DNA from: a virus
Taxonomy: Duplodnaviria; Caudoviricetes
DNA: 64,000 bases
Virus record (IMG/VR): IMGVR_UViG_3300032327_001202
Coordinates: 18,828 to 82,827 of that record
Reading direction: 5' to 3' (one strand)
Part shown: piece by piece, positions 3,512 through 19,398 of the stretch
Layout: the number at the start of each line of letters is the position of its first letter
How positions within the stretch are numbered: the first letter of the stretch is position 1
Translations under genes and position numbers: made by a program
The notes under the pieces: generated by a model
Database searches by the model: none
Told to the model about the DNA's origin: nothing
The model's input: the letters and a program-made list of their open reading frames with translations, nothing else

Positions 3512-3768
3512 TGCAAGAGACAGTAGATAAAATGGTAGATTACTTAAATGAAAATTTTTCAGAGGAGTTCTACGTAGATTTTGAAGAAGATGAAAAAAAT
3601 AAAGTAGTCTTTATTCAGTTTTTGATGGATAAAGTTATTAGCATTGATAATGCTATAGATTTTTTTAGCAGAATCAATGATAGTAAAACTTTGTGTAAAA
3701 AACAAGAGTTTGAGTTATGGAAAACAAAGGAAGAAGAACCTATTATTCAAATAAGTTATATTATGTAA
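3511..3768 (+). CDS. Hypothetical protein
   Basis: 85-aa ORF translationally coupled to the peptidase (TAATG overlap). Confidence 0.7.
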   Translation: MQETVDKMVDYLNENFSEEFYVDFEEDEKNKVVFIQFLMDKVISIDNAIDFFSRINDSKTLCKKQEFELWKTKEEEPIIQISYIM

Positions 3769-3770
3769 TT

Positions 3771-3986
3771 ATGAGTACAATTAATGTAAAAATACAAACA
3801 AATAGAATTATTGGCGGTCTTAGAGATTGTATTAAATTATTTTTACAAGAAACTAAAGAAAAAGTATTAACTTTAGAAGTTTTAAAAAAATATAATTTTG
3901 AAGAAAAAGATTTATATGATATGAATCTAACTAAATCAAAAATAAGAGATTTTAAAATTAATAAAATATTAAAATTATGCCAGTAG
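3771..3986 (+). CDS. Small protein, RDxxI-motif family member 1
   Basis: Likely start ATG 3771 (just after the stop at 3768); C-terminus KKYNFEEKDLYDMNLTKSKIRDFKINKIL shared with the four downstream ORFs. Confidence 0.75.
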   Translation: MSTINVKIQTNRIIGGLRDCIKLFLQETKEKVLTLEVLKKYNFEEKDLYDMNLTKSKIRDFKINKILKLCQ

Positions 3987-4216
3987 TTTCATTAGATTTC
4001 GCAAGTTTATATCCTAGACCAATGGGTGATTTTTCTATGGGAGATGATTTTGATAAATCTACTAAGTATATATTAGATAGAAATAAAGATCATGATTATG
4101 TAGATCTTTTATTACTTGAAAAGTATGGGTTGGTAACAAGTAGTTTATTTGATTTTCCTTTTGTTCAAACAAAGGTAAGAGATTATGAGATAAATAAAAT
4201 ATTAGATAGTATATGA
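3977..4216 (+). CDS. Small protein: PolB motif A-like peptide (VVSLDFASLYP) plus RDxxI C-terminal domain
   Basis: N-terminus MPVVSLDFASLYP matches family-B polymerase DxxSLYP; C-terminus KVRDYEINKIL. Confidence 0.8.
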   Translation: MPVVSLDFASLYPRPMGDFSMGDDFDKSTKYILDRNKDHDYVDLLLLEKYGLVTSSLFDFPFVQTKVRDYEINKILDSI

Positions 4217-4467
4217 GTGATATAATCAGACAAGAACTTAAAAAAGTAATAAATAGTTTTTATGGAAGAAATCCCGATATAGAAACTGATTTTACTAAAT
4301 CTATAAAGTTTTTATTATCTAAATTGGATGTTAAGTTTTTAACATACGAGTTTGTAGAAAAGATAAAAGATAAATATGATATAGTATATACGGATTTGTC
4401 TGATTTTTCATTAGTTCAGATAAAGGTAAGGGATTATGAAATAAATAAAATCTTTAAAAGTATCTAA
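4213..4467 (+). CDS. Small protein: PolB motif B-like peptide (KKVINSFYG) plus RDxxI C-terminal domain
   Basis: QELKKVINSFYG matches family-B KxxxNSxYG; C-terminus KVRDYEINKIF. Confidence 0.75.
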   Translation: MSDIIRQELKKVINSFYGRNPDIETDFTKSIKFLLSKLDVKFLTYEFVEKIKDKYDIVYTDLSDFSLVQIKVRDYEINKIFKSI

Positions 4468-4497
4468 ACAAAAAAAATTATTTTTTTATCACTTTAT

Positions 4498-4791
4498 ATG
4501 AAAAGTAAAAGTGATTTAAAGATAAAATATGGTGATAACATCATAGACGAAATAGAAAATAAATTAGCAAAAGAAATATCTGATAGTATAAACAAGGATA
4601 TACTTAATAGTTTTAAGAAACCAAGTAAAATTTATCTACTTTCTTTAGTTGAAAATATTAATAATAAAGAAGGTGAGTTATTTATACTAATGGAAAAATA
4701 TGGTATTATAGAAAATGATTTATATAGCCTTGAAATTGTTAAATCAAAAATAAGAGAATATAATATAGATTTAATCTTAAAAAATAATTAA
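4498..4791 (+). CDS. Small protein: major-capsid-like helix plus RExxI C-terminal domain
   Basis: SDLKIKYGDNIIDEIENKLAKEISDSINKDIL aligns ungapped to this window's MCP segment EDIKANTGMDIVQKMESILVNELSQTISKQII; C-terminus KIREYNIDLIL. Confidence 0.75.
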   Translation: MKSKSDLKIKYGDNIIDEIENKLAKEISDSINKDILNSFKKPSKIYLLSLVENINNKEGELFILMEKYGIIENDLYSLEIVKSKIREYNIDLILKNN

Positions 4792-4807
4792 CTTTTTCAA
4801 AAATTTT

Positions 4808-5107
4808 TTGTATATTTGTATGGAAGAAAAAAATATAAATTATAAATCTTATATAGAGGAACAAATAAGTAAAAGTATTTCTTATTCTGATTATATATGT
4901 GATGAGTTAGATAAAACTATAGATTATGCTGATTACTTAAGTGATAAACTTGAAAGTGAAGTATTTTTAGTAAAATTACACACTGATATGAATTTATCAG
5001 ATATAATAGAAATGTATGATTTATCAGAAAAAGATCTTCATAAATTGAGTATAGTTAAGTTAAAAGTAAGAGATTATAAAATAAATTTATTACTAAAACA
5101 AGATTAA
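4808..5107 (+). CDS. Small protein: two scaffold-like 14-aa repeats plus RDxxI C-terminal domain
   Basis: KSISYSDYICDELDKTIDYADYLSDKLE vs protease/scaffold KSIKYSEYVAENLDKNIAYAEYIAENLD (14/28 identical by hand); C-terminus KVRDYKINLLL. Confidence 0.8.
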   Translation: MYICMEEKNINYKSYIEEQISKSISYSDYICDELDKTIDYADYLSDKLESEVFLVKLHTDMNLSDIIEMYDLSEKDLHKLSIVKLKVRDYKINLLLKQD

Positions 5108-6289: not shown

Positions 6290-6466
6290 ATGAACAAAGA
6301 TAAAATAGATTTATATAATTTTTTAGTAGATAACCCTTACTTTTCTAAGGAATATGTTATGGGAAAGATATTTAATTTTTCTTTTTCTGATATACAATAT
6401 ATCAATAATTTAGAACTAATGGAAAAAAGAAATAAAAAAATAGATGATTTATTAAATGAAGATTAG
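6290..6466 (+). CDS. 58-aa ORF (not in track): portal C-terminal-like peptide plus RNKKIDDLL
   Basis: Manual translation MNKDKIDLYNFLVDNPYFSKEYVMGKIFNFSFSDIQYINNLELMEKRNKKIDDLLNED*; PYFSKEYVMGKIFNFSFSDI aligns with portal PYFHVDFLVDKIMKLTPEEI. Confidence 0.75.
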   Translation: MNKDKIDLYNFLVDNPYFSKEYVMGKIFNFSFSDIQYINNLELMEKRNKKIDDLLNED

Positions 6467-6617
6467 TATTGATGAAATAATAACTTATGATATAGTAGCA
6501 TCTCCAGCACTTGGAAGTGCTAAACTAGTATATGATGAAGAGCTTAAACGAAAGAAAATATTAGAGGATATGGAGAGGAGAAATAAGATTTTAGATGAGT
6601 TATTAAAAGAGGATTAA
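6456..6617 (+). CDS. 53-aa ORF (not in track): prohead-protease-like peptide plus RNKILDELL
   Basis: Manual translation MKISIDEIITYDIVASPALGSAKLVYDEELKRKKILEDMERRNKILDELLKED*; TYDIVASPALGSA vs protease TYDIVADPGFASA (9/13 identical). Confidence 0.8.
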   Translation: MKISIDEIITYDIVASPALGSAKLVYDEELKRKKILEDMERRNKILDELLKED

Positions 6618-8951: not shown

Positions 8952-8984
8952 AAAAAAGAGGACTTATTTAGTCCTCTTTTTTTT
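8952..8984. terminator. Bidirectional terminator
   Basis: AAAAAAGAGGACT-TATTT-AGTCCTCTTTTTT between convergent genes. Confidence 0.75.
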
Positions 8985-9461
8985 ACCTCTTTTATTTATT
9001 GGAGGTGTATAATTTGTTGATGTGGATTGGGTAGATGGCGTAGTGTAAGCATAATCAAAATAAAATAAATTAGGGCTGGAACCTGTTTTATATAATTCAT
9101 GTTCTTCTTCTTTAAATTCCTCAAATTCTTTGTTTTCTAAAATAGAATCTAATTTTCTATCACGATTAATGGTAGCAACTTCTCGTTTAATTCTTTCTTT
9201 TTCCTCCTCTGAATTACCAAAACCTTTCATAGGGTTAACAGTAACTAAATCTATCCCTATTGTTTGAGCGGCTATTTTTTTAGCAATTGGTAATAAACTT
9301 GGAAAAGATTCATTTGACTGTGTCCCTACTAATGTAGTATCCATATTTATTTCATTTTTTAAATGAAGATTAGCATATTCGGTCATCCAGTTATTTACTA
9401 CAGATTGTGTAGATGATACATGATTCAAATCCCATTTATCTATTTTTATATTTGGTTTCAT
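8964..9461 (-). CDS. Truncated paralog of the major capsid N-terminal region with an inserted RDRKLDSIL helix
   Basis: WMTEYANLH vs MCP WMAEYAEYH; LLPIAKKIAAQTIGIDLVTVNP vs LLPVAMKIAAQTIGLDLVAVKP (17/22); LFYFDYAY vs LVYVDFQY after the insert. Confidence 0.85.
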   Translation of the reverse strand: MKPNIKIDKWDLNHVSSTQSVVNNWMTEYANLHLKNEINMDTTLVGTQSNESFPSLLPIAKKIAAQTIGIDLVTVNPMKGFGNSEEEKERIKREVATINRDRKLDSILENKEFEEFKEEEHELYKTGSSPNLFYFDYAYTTPSTQSTSTNYTPPINKRGKKKRTK

Positions 9462-9464
9462 ATT

Positions 9465-10568
9465 TTATATTATTTTTTCTTCTAAAATTATTTCTATATT
9501 TTGTTCATAAGAAATTTTTAATAATTCTTTTTTATTTTCCAAAACCCAATTATCTTTTAATTGGTCATTTCTTTTTACAACCTCAAATTGCTCTTCACCA
9601 CCAAAAAATTCTCTTGGCTCATAATGTTGAATACCATTAAACTCTATAAATAACCCCTTTTTAGGTAAATAAAAATCAAATCTATATGTAGAATTACCTA
9701 TTTTTTGTTTATATTCTTTAATGTATTCTATACCTTTTATATCTAACCAATTCTTTATTTGACGTTCTCCTTTTGATGAAGAACAATTAGGACAACCACA
9801 TTTATGATGTATAATATAATTAGGTTTAGCACTCCAAATATAATCACATACTTTACATTTATGTTTTAAATAAAAAAGAGACCCTATATATTTTTCACCA
9901 TCTACTAATTCTATATCATTTGGAAGAAGAGATAAATATTTTGTATGAGAAAATTTTCTACCAGAACAAGATGAACACCCTAATACTATATTAGCTATAT
10001 TTTTAGGCGTAGTGTTAAATTTCTCACCACATTTTAAACATTCAAAATCATGATTTTCTCTAAAATTAGTGTAATTTCCTATTAATTTTATATTCCTTTC
10101 TATTAATAATTCATTAAATTTATTAATATAGTTATATGATTTTTTGCTTAATAAATTTTTATCCTTTTTACATTCACAAATATATTTTGTGATTTGTTTA
10201 GGTGTTTTATTTATTATTTCATTACATATTTTACATTCAAAATTTATATACGTATTAGTGTTAATATAATTATCTACTCTAATAAAATCTAAATCTTTTA
10301 TTCTTAAATCAAATTCTTCATTTGTTATTTTTCTACCTAATGAAGAAAAACTATCGTTTGTTTCTTTTTTACATTCACATAATGTTCGATTATATAATTT
10401 AGGCTTTTTCATACTTTTTTTACCACATAACTTACATTCAAATTCTATTGGTGTTTCTGCATTAATATAATTACCGATTCTTATATAATCAGAATCTTTA
10501 ATTTTTAAATCAAAATCATTATTAGTAAATGCTTTTGGTCCTGACTTTTCGTTCTTTTTTATATACAT
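9465..10568 (-). mobile_element. Free-standing homing-endonuclease-like gene (CxxC repeats plus C-terminal PD-(D/E)xK/Vsr-like domain)
   Basis: Repeated FECKxC units, GCPNCSSSKGE, RFDFYLP..FIEFNGIQH; directly downstream of the capsid gene. Confidence 0.8.
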
Positions 10569-10620
10569 AATTTATATATTTTCTTATTATATTTTTATTT
10601 CATGAATAGTTCATGAAATA

Positions 10621-10649
10621 AAAAAACCTCCCTTGAGGGGAGGTTTTTT
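10621..10649. terminator. Terminator downstream of the major capsid gene
   Basis: AAAAAACCTCCC-TTGAG-GGGAGGTTTTTT. Confidence 0.8.
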
Positions 10650-10667
10650 GTATTCTAATTTATTATA

Positions 10668-12410
10668 TTAGTTAAGGTAGCCATTAGCATCATTAACGTA
10701 GATAGTCATAAATTGTTTTTGTGGGAAGAAACCTAATTCAGCCACAGCATATCTTGATCTTAAAATCATTCTTGGAGCAAATGTTGCTTCTGACATGATT
10801 GAGATAGATTGTGCCATGAGGAATGGCACGAAACAGATACCTGGTTGATCAGGATTGTTTTTACGTCCGATTAAGATTCTGTTGTCATTGTATTTCATGT
10901 AAGGATCTACGTAGATAGTGATATCACCGATTTGACCTACAGGGTACATTTGACCGTTTGTGTTTAATTTAGATTTAAGTGGGTTAATTGTGTAACCTGC
11001 AACATCCATTAAAGCTGCTGCTAATCCACCATTTGTTACCGCATATTGTGCTGGTCCAACACGTCCTTCAGTTGCGATGTAGTTAGAAGCATGTACCATT
11101 TTAGTGATAAGCTTTCTTTGTACAGCGTGTGTAGTTTCACCACCTGGTCCTGCTTGAACATAAAGAGTATCTAAGTCAAATATAGTTTGTCCAGAGATGT
11201 TAGCGTTAGCATTTAAACCTGTGTATAAAGGAGCAGTTTGTCTGTTTATATTACCCATATCAAATACTTTAGCAATAATTTGCTTAGAGATAGTTTGAGA
11301 AAGTTCGTTTACAAGGATTGATTCCATTTTTTGAACGATATCCATACCAGTGTTAGCTTTGATATCTTCAATTTCTGTTCTACGTAATGCAGAACTTACT
11401 TCTACTGTACCAACTGTAATTGATTTAGAAGAAATTTTTGGTCCAATTGCACCTGCATATGTGCTTTCTTCTTCTTGACGAGCCATTGGGTATTGCCCAC
11501 CATTACCATTAAAGTTTGTAACATATCCTGGTAATTGATCTTCAAGAGCAGATACTAAGCTTATGCTTATAGCATTTGAGTTAGTAGACTGTCCAAATAA
11601 GTAGTTAATTTCTGAAACCATTGAACCACCTGCTGTAGCACCTGTAGTTGAAACGTTAAATGAGTTGTTTGCTTGATTTAAGCCATAAACAACACCACCA
11701 CCATATGCACCACCTGCCGCATTTGATTCTTTGTAAGCTCTGAATATAGGCTGTCCATCAATACGAGAGAAACCTAAGAACTCTAAGTAACCAAATTTGT
11801 TAGTTGGTTCAGTTGTAGTACTAGATACTGAAGTTGATGCAGTGAAACCTGTCCAAATTCTTGTACCAAATGCTAAACCACCTTGGTTTTGTTGAATACC
11901 TGCAGTAGTTAAAGCGCTATTAATAGCTGTATTTAATGAAGCACTTAAACCTGTAGAAGTTAAAGTAGCATTCCAAGCAATTTTGAATACTTGAGGTTTT
12001 GTGTTAAAGTTTGAAAGATTTAAATCGTCATATTGAAAATCAACATAAACTAAATCAATCTTTGGACCTGGAGTTGGCTTTACAGCTACTAAATCAAGAC
12101 CAATTGTTTGTGCAGCAATTTTCATAGCTACTGGTAATAGGTTTTGTCCTAAATCACCTGAACCTATGTTTGATGAACCATAGTTTGCACCAATTGTTGT
12201 ACCTGGGTAAGTACCAACTTGTGGAGCTAAAACAGCACCTAAACCACCTGTAGAAGCATTAAGGTAAGCGTTTTCGTTTATTGCATGGTATTCAGCATAT
12301 TCTGCCATCCATGAATATTTTTCTCTGTCCTCTTTGTTAACACCAATGTTTTCTAAAATTGGAGTCCATTTGTTAAGAGCTTTTTGTAAGTCAATTCTAA
12401 CTTGTGACAT
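10668..12410 (-). CDS. gp23: Major capsid protein (T4 gp23-like)
   Basis: KWTPILE N-terminus, EDIKANTGMDI..E..L..E helix, IYVDPY, F.P.M.L.SRYAV C-terminal motif; adjacent to protease and portal. Confidence 0.9.
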   Translation of the reverse strand: MSQVRIDLQKALNKWTPILENIGVNKEDREKYSWMAEYAEYHAINENAYLNASTGGLGAVLAPQVGTYPGTTIGANYGSSNIGSGDLGQNLLPVAMKIAAQTIGLDLVAVKPTPGPKIDLVYVDFQYDDLNLSNFNTKPQVFKIAWNATLTSTGLSASLNTAINSALTTAGIQQNQGGLAFGTRIWTGFTASTSVSSTTTEPTNKFGYLEFLGFSRIDGQPIFRAYKESNAAGGAYGGGVVYGLNQANNSFNVSTTGATAGGSMVSEINYLFGQSTNSNAISISLVSALEDQLPGYVTNFNGNGGQYPMARQEEESTYAGAIGPKISSKSITVGTVEVSSALRRTEIEDIKANTGMDIVQKMESILVNELSQTISKQIIAKVFDMGNINRQTAPLYTGLNANANISGQTIFDLDTLYVQAGPGGETTHAVQRKLITKMVHASNYIATEGRVGPAQYAVTNGGLAAALMDVAGYTINPLKSKLNTNGQMYPVGQIGDITIYVDPYMKYNDNRILIGRKNNPDQPGICFVPFLMAQSISIMSEATFAPRMILRSRYAVAELGFFPQKQFMTIYVNDANGYLN

Positions 12411-12490: not shown

Positions 12491-14695
12491 TTAAATGTTT
12501 TTGAATCTTTCTAAGATTGATTTGAAATCTGAATCAGATAGTTTATCTTCTTGTATTAAACTGTCATGAGAAATCATTTTTTTAGTTGATTCATTCTTTT
12601 TTAAGTTTCTAGTTAACCAAAAATGTTCAATTTTAGCTTCTGAATCCAATTCAGGATATAGTTTAGCTTGTGAAAGAATTGATTTTTTAGAACTTTCATT
12701 TGTTACTTCCCAAATTGATTTTATATTTTCTGGCATCAATCTGATTAGTCTTTCTTCTAATGATTCATTTTTAATAGAAAGTGCTTCTTGTATTAATTTT
12801 ATAACTTCTGAACTTGTGAAATAACTCTTTTCGTTTATGTAAAGTTTTACTTGTTCTTGCTCTTCGTTTGTTAAGCTATAATAGCTATCAACTTGAGACT
12901 TGTTTAAAAATTTTAAGAAATGTAGATCGTTTGTTTCAGAAACTTTACGTTTTCTAGCTTCTTCGATTAATAAATCTATTTTTTTACTTAAATCTGAATC
13001 TGTATTTTTATTTTCTAAGTAGTCTTCGTCTGCTTTAGATACATCTGGTAAACCTTCTAATTTTACTTCTTTACCTAATAATTCATCTTTGAAATCTGCT
13101 TCATTTGGAACCGCAGTATCAACTTTTTGTTCTTCTGGTAATTCAACTTCTGTTAATTCAGTATAATCTAAAGAAACTGGAGTTGCTTCATCAGCTTCAC
13201 CCGCTTTTTCAACACCATCTTCACCATGAAGTTCATCCTCACCACCTTCTAAATAGTTATCTGATTTATTATCAACATCATTTTCACCAAAACCATATTC
13301 TTCTAAAGTAGGAATAAGATTTGATTCATTACTTTCAAATAATTTAGTACCATTAACTTTTTCAGAAATTAAACCTGTATAAGATACAGCTTTATCTAAG
13401 TTTTCAGCAATGTATTGAGAATAAGAAATGTTATCATCAAGGTGTTCTGCTATATATTCAGAATATTTAATATTACCTTCTAAGTTTTCAGCGATATACT
13501 CAGAATAAGCAATATTACCATCTAAGTTTTCAGCTAAATATTCAGCATAAGAAATATTTCTATCTAAGTTTTCAGCTAAGTATTCTGCATAAGAAATATT
13601 CTTATCAACATTCTCAGCAATATATTCAGAATAAGAAATGTTTTTGTCTAAATTTTCAGCGATGTATTCAGAGTAAGAAATGTTTCTATCTAAATTTTCA
13701 GCGATGTATTCAGAATAAGAAATGTTCTTATCTAAGTTTTCAGCAATATATTCTGCATAAGCGATATTTTTATCTAAGTTTTCAGCAACATATTCAGAAT
13801 ATTTAATTGATTTGTTTAAGTTTTCAACTAAATAATCGTTATGTTCGATTAATCTATCAGTTGTATCTTTAAGAGATTTGTTCTCAGAAACAACAACTTG
13901 AATTTTTTCTGCTAAATAATCTAAGTATTTAACAACTTGAGAATTAGTTTTATTTAATTCTTCATAGTAGTTTAAAAGTTTTTCTAATTTAACTGGTTCT
14001 AAATTACCAGATTTAAGAGCACTTTTAACTTCTTTTTTAGTTGCAGCAATTTCATTAACTATATATTTCGAATAGTCTGACAATTGATCTTTCGTTACGA
14101 ATTCATTTTTGTTCATGTTAAATAATTCATTTATTTTTGATTCATTTGATACTTCATATATTCTGAAGTTAGCATCATTTGAATAATTTAAAGACTCATT
14201 TATAGAAGACATTCTCGCAGAAGCAAATCCCGGATCTGCAACTATATCATAAGTAAATAATTTTTTTAGTGATACTGTACCATCAGCTTCTGTAATACCA
14301 GCAGCTCTTGAAGATACAAATATAGGGCAACCATCATCAACTAAAGCCTTAGCTTCTTTTCCCCAATAGGTATTTAATAATTTAATTTGTCCTTCAACTA
14401 CATTTTTTTCTTTAACATAATATGCGGTTTTGATTAAATGGGATGCACGGGATAGTGAAGTGTCAAAGACGTCGGGGTGGTCAAACTCACCATAAACTAC
14501 TCCCATAGTAGAAATCCTGCTATTAAGTTCTTCTAAACAAGGCAAGAATCTTTCAGGAGTATATACTCTTTCATTCCTATTTTTAACCATAAACTCAGTA
14601 AAAGTACCTCCTAAAAGATAATCTTTTCTAGCATCTACACCTTCGTTCATTTTTAAAGGATTTGTATTATTTTCAATGATTAATACTGGCTTCAT
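12491..14695 (-). CDS. gp21: Prohead protease (gp21-like) fused to a scaffold-like region
   Basis: NRNERVY, YGEFDHP, VSSRAAG, TYDIVADPG protease motifs in the N-terminal ~170 aa; coiled-coil, repeat and acidic C-terminal region. Confidence 0.9.
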   Translation of the reverse strand: MKPVLIIENNTNPLKMNEGVDARKDYLLGGTFTEFMVKNRNERVYTPERFLPCLEELNSRISTMGVVYGEFDHPDVFDTSLSRASHLIKTAYYVKEKNVVEGQIKLLNTYWGKEAKALVDDGCPIFVSSRAAGITEADGTVSLKKLFTYDIVADPGFASARMSSINESLNYSNDANFRIYEVSNESKINELFNMNKNEFVTKDQLSDYSKYIVNEIAATKKEVKSALKSGNLEPVKLEKLLNYYEELNKTNSQVVKYLDYLAEKIQVVVSENKSLKDTTDRLIEHNDYLVENLNKSIKYSEYVAENLDKNIAYAEYIAENLDKNISYSEYIAENLDRNISYSEYIAENLDKNISYSEYIAENVDKNISYAEYLAENLDRNISYAEYLAENLDGNIAYSEYIAENLEGNIKYSEYIAEHLDDNISYSQYIAENLDKAVSYTGLISEKVNGTKLFESNESNLIPTLEEYGFGENDVDNKSDNYLEGGEDELHGEDGVEKAGEADEATPVSLDYTELTEVELPEEQKVDTAVPNEADFKDELLGKEVKLEGLPDVSKADEDYLENKNTDSDLSKKIDLLIEEARKRKVSETNDLHFLKFLNKSQVDSYYSLTNEEQEQVKLYINEKSYFTSSEVIKLIQEALSIKNESLEERLIRLMPENIKSIWEVTNESSKKSILSQAKLYPELDSEAKIEHFWLTRNLKKNESTKKMISHDSLIQEDKLSDSDFKSILERFKNI
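13390..13850 (-). repeat. Coding tandem repeat, about 10-11 copies of 42 bp (14 aa: NISYSEYIAENLDK)
   Basis: Directly visible in the translation and DNA of the protease/scaffold gene. Confidence 0.95.
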
Positions 14696-14831: not shown

Positions 14832-15236
14832 ATGTATAAAATTAATTTTGGTGATGAGAAAGTTTTTTTAAATTATTTAAAAGGTTTTGAAAATAAGTAC
14901 CATAAAAGACAAAAAGTATTAAATGAGATTTTAGAAATTAATGATAAAGATGATGAAGCATTAAGCTACTGGGATTTTACTGATAATAGTATAATATATG
15001 GTCAATTTTTTGATAAAAGATATGATAAAGATACATCTTTAAGTAATGTTTCACATTATGTTAAAAACATAGAAAAAATAAATGGGGAATATTTCGCAGA
15101 AATAAAAATATTAACTACTTATTGGGGTATAGCATTATTAGATTTAATTAATGCTGGAATAAAATTTCATTTAGAATGTGTCTATCATACTTATGAAAAT
15201 AAAAAAATAATTAGACTAGATATAAATGATTATTAG
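14832..15236 (+). CDS. Degenerate (likely inactive) paralog of the prohead protease domain, with an RQKVLNEIL motif
   Basis: IIYGQF..DTSLSNVSH..IKILTTYWG..LINAG aligns with protease VVYGEFDHP..DTSLSRASH..IKLLNTYWG..LVDDG; the HP and SSR motifs are absent. Confidence 0.75.
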   Translation: MYKINFGDEKVFLNYLKGFENKYHKRQKVLNEILEINDKDDEALSYWDFTDNSIIYGQFFDKRYDKDTSLSNVSHYVKNIEKINGEYFAEIKILTTYWGIALLDLINAGIKFHLECVYHTYENKKIIRLDINDY

Positions 15237-18705: not shown

Positions 18706-19398
18706 TTATTTTCCATACTTGCTATAACTTTTTTGTATTCTATTAATATGGTCTTTTAACTCTGTAAAATTTTTATCAATATCTGATGATATATCAAACA
18801 TATCTTTAACTAATAATTTAGATAATTCAGCATGTCTTTTATCTCGTGTTTCTAATTTAATTTTCCAAATTTCATATAATTTTTTTGGATCATATTTATT
18901 TATTGGATGTCCTGAATATAAAAATCTAGGAATTAAATTCATATTAATTTCATGAACTAAAACTATTTGAGCCATATTATATTCTACAATAGCCCATTCA
19001 TATCCATATTTTGATAATTCATTATAACATCCTTCATAATCAACGTTCAATCCTATATTATTATCAAAGTTTTTATCTATAAAAAATTTATCAAAAATAG
19101 ATACTCTTATTCCAATTGGAATAAAATTAAAATTAACCCCATATATAATAATCAAGTTATCAAACTTTTTAAAATCAATAATAAATACAGGAGAATATTT
19201 AATCCAATTAGAATCATCTTTATAATGAAGATGATAAAAATATCCTAACTTCATGTTACCAGGACTTATATTTAAAACATTTTTATCTGAATTTTTGTAT
19301 TTTTCATAAAAAAATAAAGAATTTTGTTTAAAAACATCGGGTATATCTTTTCCATATACTAAATTAGATAATTTAACTCTTTCCAACAACTCTGACAT
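18706..19398 (-). CDS. Putative DNA end-protector protein (T4 gp2-like)
   Basis: YSPVFIID...GVNFNFIP..R pattern resembles gp2; sits next to the gp4-like gene. Confidence 0.55.
   Translation of the reverse strand: MSELLERVKLSNLVYGKDIPDVFKQNSLFFYEKYKNSDKNVLNISPGNMKLGYFYHLHYKDDSNWIKYSPVFIIDFKKFDNLIIIYGVNFNFIPIGIRVSIFDKFFIDKNFDNNIGLNVDYEGCYNELSKYGYEWAIVEYNMAQIVLVHEINMNLIPRFLYSGHPINKYDPKKLYEIWKIKLETRDKRHAELSKLLVKDMFDISSDIDKNFTELKDHINRIQKSYSKYGK

Follow-up and report, generated by a model that had tools for sequence, protein, structure and literature searches.

In the unexpanded head of bacteriophage T4, the residues of the major capsid protein (MCP) gp23 that precede L106 are disordered and L106 faces inward, with a contact to the scaffolding core suggested by the authors, and after expansion the N-terminal region forms an N-arm and an N-fist that connect neighboring capsomers (PMC9546572). 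Gol, a 29-residue stretch within the first quarter of gp23, constitutes the most conserved part of the protein and binds domains II-III of elongation factor Tu (EF-Tu), an interaction proposed for all T4-like phages (PMC3014915), and fusion proteins that carry the gp23 N-terminus are directed to GroEL (PMC3012670). Short docking or sorting elements have been described for several capsid systems: the 80alpha scaffolding protein and the SaPI1 protein CpmB dock on the N-arm helix of the capsid via a C-terminal helix-and-hook (PMC5644958), the C-terminal cargo peptides of Family 1 encapsulins have their pocket at the N-terminal helix and the P-domain (PMC11664910), and in T4 a short label common to diverse small internal proteins, the capsid targeting sequence, directs them into the scaffolding core (PMC3012670). 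Here, we analyzed a gene of 165 amino acids (aa) located at positions 8964-9461 (minus strand) of a 64,000-nucleotide stretch of tailed-phage DNA, hereafter the window, which comprises positions 18,828 to 82,827 of IMG/VR virus record IMGVR_UViG_3300032327_001202. Based on the list of open reading frames (ORFs), homology to the MCP, a conserved family and purifying selection, we assign its product as an MCP N-terminus paralog into which a helix has been inserted; helices of this type end many small proteins of a related phage, and we refer to them as the tag. The virus fragment as a whole is of uncultured origin, measures 82.8 kb with a G+C content of 24.6% and is estimated to be ~15% complete.

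A capsid N-terminus paralog and its family

The source of the copied segments is the gp23-type MCP gene of the same fragment (580 aa, 10668-12410, minus strand; PF07068, 3.3e-27), whose first 128 residues are near-invariant in the clade. A joint alignment revealed that the small protein is collinear with MCP residues 1-128. Profile-profile comparison by hhalign matched columns 5-84 of the small-protein family with MCP residues 6-115 at a probability of 99.6% (E 9.9e-24), and homology to Gp23 is limited to this MCP range. BLASTP of the small protein against the MCP returned 32/82 identities (E 2e-10) and spanned both the W-M-x-E-Y-A block and a 22-residue N-arm block, in which 17 residues are identical to MCP residues 91-112 (12075-12140, minus strand), a segment that is itself identical in 6/6 MCPs compared and shows one conservative change in a divergent contig. 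The third segment, L-x-Y-x-D-x-x-Y (residues 132-139), is collinear and near-invariant in both families, although it lies beyond the significant local alignment and lacks significance by itself. A preceding sequence-only reading, which had taken the gene for an MCP N-terminal paralog that preserves three MCP segments in MCP order with 17/22 identity in the second, was thus borne out: the first two segments share one BLASTP alignment and the third follows in register. Compared to the MCP, the small protein lacks a glycine-rich stretch of ~30 residues and has ~54 residues in place of a 7-residue turn. Searches of Pfam, PHROGs and PDB sequences with the small protein and its family gave only weak Gp23 matches, the Pfam ones being found in 3/29 family members and not in the window's protein. 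By ESM Atlas features, the small protein weakly resembled small fragments of portal or connector proteins, but the features in common were too few to be used.

Identical residues of the N-arm block share their codon with the MCP in only about half of the cases (8/17), which rules out a recent gene conversion from the MCP and indicates that the likeness is preserved at the level of the protein. A single branch parted 24 MCP N-termini from 28 small proteins in a joint tree (support 93/94, recovered in 96% of bootstrap trees), and the window's copy grouped with the copies of those phages that hold the closest MCPs. Together, these comparisons indicate that the small gene goes back to an old duplication in which the 5' end of the MCP gene was copied.

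Within the phage collection, the uncultured huge phages LR745206 and LR756500-LR756504 (462-735 kb) have the closest MCPs, followed by Prevotella Lak phages and jumbo phages of Tenacibaculum and Chryseobacterium. The carrier clade is a group of huge gp23-type phages, the Mahaphage-like group, and its hosts are probably Bacteroidota. While 39 close homologues of the small protein were found, an exhaustive profile search yielded 572 representative clusters (50% identity) at E<=1e-3, of which 239 remained at E<=1e-10; no such gene was present in Lak phage or in Tenacibaculum phage PTm1. In all of the best 150 of the 572 clusters, protein lengths range from 76 to 236 aa with no long intermediates among them. 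Many members are complete at 88-99 aa and begin at the N-arm block, for which reason we assign, from the alignments, a conserved core of N-arm helix, first strand, tag helix, acidic stretch and second strand, with the propeptide-like N-terminus and the basic tail being optional. In LR745206, an additional 124-aa protein (W01 129206-129580, minus strand) matches only the helix and the acidic part of the family profile (E 7e-5), and the ORF adjoining it ends in a tag. The conserved neighbors in LR745206 gave no match in Pfam or PHROGs.

The sequence-only reading had also offered an alternative, namely that the gene is a neutral relic, i.e. a 5' MCP fragment left by invasion or replacement of a capsid gene by the neighboring homing endonuclease and open by chance only. 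The endonuclease gene (367 aa, 9465-10568, minus strand; phrog_559 HNH endonuclease, 2e-56; phrog_9084 homing endonuclease) does adjoin the small gene in the window and in one relative (59% identical), where an endonuclease with 75% identity (L006:6892-8004) occupies the same intergenic site. In relatives with 95% and 78% identity, however, the MCP gene is followed directly by the small gene and the endonuclease is absent, and in LR745206 and LR756502 the small gene is surrounded by unrelated genes at a distance of ~90 kb from the MCP gene. Such a patchy occurrence is the pattern expected of a mobile gene. A three-way DNA alignment placed the borders of the insertion between the start of the small gene and the terminator-like structure of the MCP gene, a G+C-rich hairpin with a T run just past the MCP stop (approximately 10615-10650, minus strand) that is kept in a relative without the endonuclease; from this alignment and the distribution, the endonuclease is a later, unrelated and recent insertion. 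The dN/dS of the small gene in closer pairs (0.19-0.33) is similar to that of the MCP and speaks against neutral evolution, as do the diverged synonymous sites, the 572 clusters and the placement of the family in a clade of its own apart from the MCPs. As the gene occurs without the endonuclease, evolves non-neutrally and branches with other small proteins instead of a foreign MCP allele, we rejected the relic reading, which is almost certainly wrong. These analyses show that the gene is functional and has been passed on vertically within a large clade of huge phages. A homing endonuclease gene likewise lies just downstream of the MCP gene in Tenacibaculum phage PTm1.

The copied portion is far from a complete capsid fold. 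The MCP-like part of the small protein stops at the strand corresponding to MCP residues 120-127 and is followed by a short tail, leaving the protein devoid of the spine helix, the P-domain sheet, the A-domain and the complete E-loop; the small protein is not a capsid shell protein. These features bear on a second explanation, in which the gene would encode a gp24-like vertex paralog, either as a remnant or in split form, that may pair with a paralog of the C-terminal MCP half as a two-piece vertex or minor capsid protein. The minus-strand series of the window (prohead protease-scaffold fusion, MCP, homing endonuclease, 165-aa ORF) parallels the T4 order 21-22-23-(segD)-24, with the small gene in the place that gene 24 occupies in T4 after segD, and two complete relatives yielded no second MCP of full length. 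LR745206 and LR756502 do encode a 243-263 aa paralog of the C-terminal MCP half, which adds a little to this explanation, yet the N- and C-terminal paralogs are non-adjacent and jointly lack the E-loop return strand. Moreover, hhalign detected no similarity of the small protein to T4 gp24 (probability 0.1%), and the short form has been kept over the entire family. In T4 itself, bypass mutations in gp23 make gp24 dispensable (PMC3012670), so that a vertex paralog is not required. We therefore regard this explanation as improbable.

Besides the small gene, related phages contain several further MCP-derived proteins. The paralogs of 243-263 aa extend from the MCP spine helix to the C-terminus and are encoded ~5 kb downstream of the MCP gene (LR745206 207176-207907; LR756502 234429-235196), with the 243-aa protein of LR745206 ending in a tag; weaker relatives exist in LR756501 and LR756500. 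Additional truncated MCP derivatives were observed in LR756501, LR756500 and LR756504, and other huge phages carry collapsed mini-MCPs of 169-196 aa that consist of propeptide, N-arm, spine helix and last strands (L077:343-933, minus strand; L076:831-1400, plus strand; L079:196-705, minus strand). A 65-aa ORF of LR756504 (L075:1513-1710, plus strand) combines the N-arm with two tags, and a 459-aa open frame of LR756501 (359 aa from the first ATG; L078:898-1977, minus strand) includes an almost exact N-arm block.

The embedded tag helix

The tag was analyzed in LR745206, a related complete huge-phage genome of 635 kb rebuilt from pieces, by searching for the motif R-[DEN]-x-[KRQE]-[ILV]-[DEN]-x-[ILV]-[ILVF]. 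The motif is present in 70 of its 923 ORFs (~7%), compared to 1.06 ± 1.1 in shuffled proteins, and 57 of the 70 carriers have it no more than 8 residues from the C-terminus. The carriers are mostly small proteins, with one of 731 aa. A scoring matrix built from these 57 C-terminal tags, and hence from an independent genome, was applied to the ORFs of the window's phage. Residues 95-108 of the small protein (9138-9179, minus strand), which read R-D-x-K-[IL]-D-x-I-L with a preceding N, ranked third among 25,083 positions with 18.9 bits, a value above the highest of 501,660 shuffled positions (13.8 bits), and the other top scores came from tags at the C-termini of small ORFs (3717-5107 and 6290-6466). 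It is this independent matrix score that settles the identity of the inserted helix with the tag motif, which in huge phages is of the R-[DEN]-x-K-[IL]-[DN]-x-[IL]-L type. A location near the C-terminus does not apply to the small protein, as its motif ends 57 residues before the end of the chain. The tagged ORFs were not recovered by a hidden Markov model of the helix built from the small-protein family (E 14), and when the family was compared by hhalign with the constant C-terminal domain shared in a tandem gene array, the signal was weak (P 0.003, probability 10.6%).

This array consists of five tandem paralogous small genes (79-99 aa, 3717-5107, plus strand) that share a constant C-terminal domain of ~35 residues ending in the tag and differ in their N-terminal parts, two of which contain strings resembling motifs A and B of family-B polymerases, one a weak Pfam Gp23 match (E 0.003) and one scaffold-like repeats. 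Two overlapping small ORFs on the same strand (6290-6466 and 6456-6617) both end in a tag, and the second shows by eye a stretch of ~16 residues very similar to a strand of the protease-scaffold protein near residue 140. BLAST of the tagged mini-proteins against the large ORFs of the phage returned mostly noise.

The helix is embedded in an insert. Residues 81-130 (9072-9221, minus strand) form an acidic, helical segment that replaces the 7-residue turn of the MCP and represents the most constrained part of the gene, with a dN/dS of ~0.08 (dN 0.069, dS 0.824 against the relative with 78% identity). Within the helix, N99, R100 and R102 are invariant in an alignment of 23 sequences and N99 and R100 in one of 31 sequences, and some family members contain the helix more than once. 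The four tags of a divergent 98-kb phage contig have K/E and R at two positions of the motif, and both helices of its small paralog show the same exchange; this shared variant, a small sample from a single contig, suggests one reader for the tags and the small-paralog helices. The contig (G001:C6; L057, L060-L064), which stems from a huge phage of this clade and includes MCP, PolB and small paralog genes, is filed inside a bacterial genome assembly of 3.7 Mb.

In light of these data, further claims of the sequence-only reading are supported as well. It had described ~50 aa in place of a short linker (54 versus 7 residues in our alignment) with the family helix inside them, and the matrix score of this helix exceeds all shuffles. 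Its view that the helix was inserted instead of appended and kept for a purpose is supported by a layout conserved over 572 clusters and by the low dN/dS of the insert, and the idea of a graft gains further support from the helix changing with the genome's own tag variant in the one divergent phage.

Constraint along the chain and candidate roles

The segments surrounding the insert differ in their degree of conservation. The propeptide-like N-terminal part including the W-M-x-E-Y-A block (residues 1-52, 9306-9461, minus strand) is the least constrained according to the alignments (dN/dS ~0.5); it is degraded in this clade, nearer to the MCP in distant members and missing from many of the complete 88-99 aa members. 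The second MCP-like strand (residues 131-139, 9045-9071, minus strand) corresponds to MCP residues 120-127 in the collinear alignment, and its L132, Y134, D136 and Y139 are invariant or nearly so throughout the family. The Ser/Thr-rich tail (residues 142-165, 8967-9038, minus strand) ends in a basic cluster with a net charge of +7; comparison of tails revealed a strongly basic one in only 31/138 family members, which makes this feature clade-specific.

The copy of the MCP N-arm helix and first strand (residues 53-80, 9222-9305, minus strand; helix 57-67 predicted with low confidence) contains the 22-residue block, which aligns to T4 gp23 residues ~95-116. The block is by alignment the counterpart of the Gol region, which lies at gp23 residues ~93-122. 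This raises a third explanation, in which the small protein would bind the EF-Tu or chaperonin of the host, or a Lit-like sensor that monitors this MCP segment, as a host-factor binder or decoy and either tune translation and folding toward MCP production or blunt abortive infection. In its favor are the conservation and EF-Tu binding of Gol (PMC3014915), the targeting of GroEL by the gp23 N-terminus (PMC3012670), the retention of exactly the N-arm block in minimal family members and the portability of this block, which recurs in the 459-aa frame of LR756501 and in the 65-aa ORF of LR756504. On the other hand, the overlap with Gol depends on an alignment combined with approximate coordinates, a Lit-type sensor should be triggered rather than silenced by a free peptide of the Gol type, and both the tag helix and the invariant second strand are left unexplained. 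Overall, we consider a host-factor role rather unlikely.

Structure prediction provided limited information on the arrangement of these segments. The AlphaFold model of the small protein as a monomer reached a pLDDT of 59 and a pTM of 0.27 without any strands, with a single helix at residues 85-109 standing out (pLDDT 73-84), and the MCP model computed from 24 sequences (pLDDT 45.8) was useless for locating the insertion point. Given the low confidence of both models, a position of the insert in a surface loop was not confirmed. The small protein is predicted to be largely unfolded alone, which would fit folding on a partner. Predicted disorder, together with the copying of inter-subunit elements (N-arm and E-loop start) without the rest of the fold and the inter-capsomer contacts of the N-arm in the mature T4 head (PMC9546572), would also suit a dominant-negative assembly blocker, i.e. 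a fragment that caps MCP interfaces and thereby either delays polymerization of the phage's own capsid in the manner of a chaperone or poisons assembly in co-infecting relatives. However, the copied MCP segment is identical across the clade, so that such a blocker could not tell self from competitor, and the tag helix is again unaccounted for. The chances of this explanation appear slim, slightly more so than those of the vertex paralog.

We tentatively favor, as a possibility somewhat short of even, that the small protein is a prohead accessory protein whose N-arm module and tag helix serve in assembly or in the docking of cargo, because a single chain joins a copy of the capsid arm with a type of helix that docks on such arms elsewhere. 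The proposal draws on three precedents: the N-terminal region of T4 gp23, the helix docked on the N-arm in 80alpha and the N-helix pocket of encapsulins. The small protein would act in the prohead, where the copied N-arm module might let it occupy the site of the MCP N-arm on the scaffold or on neighboring MCP subunits, and the embedded tag helix might engage the same reader as the C-terminal tags. It could then serve as an adaptor, a regulator or a mimic of an occupied site that links tagged small proteins to the capsid. A connection to the prohead is provided by the position of the gene, which in this clade directly follows the protease-scaffold and MCP genes and is thus encoded with the head genes, and by the tags on other MCP-derived proteins of related genomes.

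A more far-reaching version seems doubtful to us. According to it, the small protein would reveal the reader of the tag, and the C-terminal helices on ~7% of the proteins of these huge phages would be scaffold-like docking helices for the MCP N-arm in the prohead, enabling an encapsulin-like loading of dozens of small proteins that are delivered with the DNA, and the mini-protein would be a built-in regulator or adaptor of this process.

Several observations weigh against a role in the prohead. No compensatory change of the MCP N-arm was seen in the divergent contig, where the tag variant differs, and the N-arm is near-invariant. Tags are also found on small proteins with DNA-polymerase-like variable parts, which fits poorly with a purely capsid role, and the propeptide-like N-terminus, from which contact with the scaffold would be expected, is the least conserved segment and absent in many members. 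In distant phages the gene is unlinked to head genes, with its position downstream of the MCP gene holding in this clade, and a conserved site for the prohead protease was not shown, as a Glu after the helix occurs in only 80/138 members.

With respect to the neighboring head genes, the prohead protease-scaffold fusion (734 aa, 12491-14695, minus strand), located upstream of the MCP gene, was assigned from a weak Peptidase_S77 match and 14-residue repeats. Its C-terminus (12491-12540, minus strand) forms a conserved amphipathic helix, which four relatives share without change and which has similar counterparts in LR745206 and LR756502; this helix is not the tag but has the same hydrophobic spacing. 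On the opposite strand just upstream of the fusion gene, a 134-aa ORF (14832-15236, plus strand) resembles residues 66-122 of the protease domain of the fusion protein (38% over 58 residues, E 3e-6). A 10-mer resembling a late promoter is shared by the regions upstream of the MCP and scaffold genes and, in relatives, of the small gene, and was not enriched in the window (6 occurrences versus 5 expected).

Comparison with known capsid systems

Our literature search found no paper describing an MCP paralog reduced to the N-arm or the tag. Huge phages encode hundreds of small proteins without an assigned function, and the family described here joins the tag helix to a protein of known ancestry, namely the N-terminal arm of the MCP. 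This yields a testable hypothesis, the pairing of the tag helix with the capsid N-arm, which can be approached with a protein of 90-165 aa and a peptide. Should the pairing prove wrong, the 572 clusters at 50% identity would still represent a large undescribed group of capsid-derived proteins that appears to keep a counterpart of the EF-Tu-binding Gol segment.

Compared with the N-terminal region of T4 gp23, the family is homologous and collinear, including a K-W-x-P block in distant members, the helix-strand block and the next strand. Unlike gp23, the small protein is a stand-alone unit of 88-180 aa without A-domain, spine helix and E-loop return strand. Like T4 gp24, it is a paralog of the MCP whose gene closely follows that of the MCP, with a homing endonuclease gene (segD in T4) between them, but gp24 has the full HK97 fold at 427 aa, which the small protein with its 165 aa cannot form.

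The tag in turn resembles the docking element of the 80alpha scaffolding protein and CpmB, a short C-terminal amphipathic helix with basic residues that is common to different proteins, in being short, amphipathic, mostly C-terminal and present on unrelated proteins. There is, however, no sequence relationship, the likeness is one in kind only, and the helix of the small protein is internal and part of the same chain as the N-arm copy. The T4 internal-protein label is N-terminal and is removed by the prohead protease. The tag is likewise a short shared label, but one that is C-terminal or internal and for which no conserved cleavage site was found. Encapsulins, whose shells have the HK97 fold, provide the precedent for an N-terminal capsid helix that reads a C-terminal label; they are cellular compartments with peptides of ~10 residues and a different motif.

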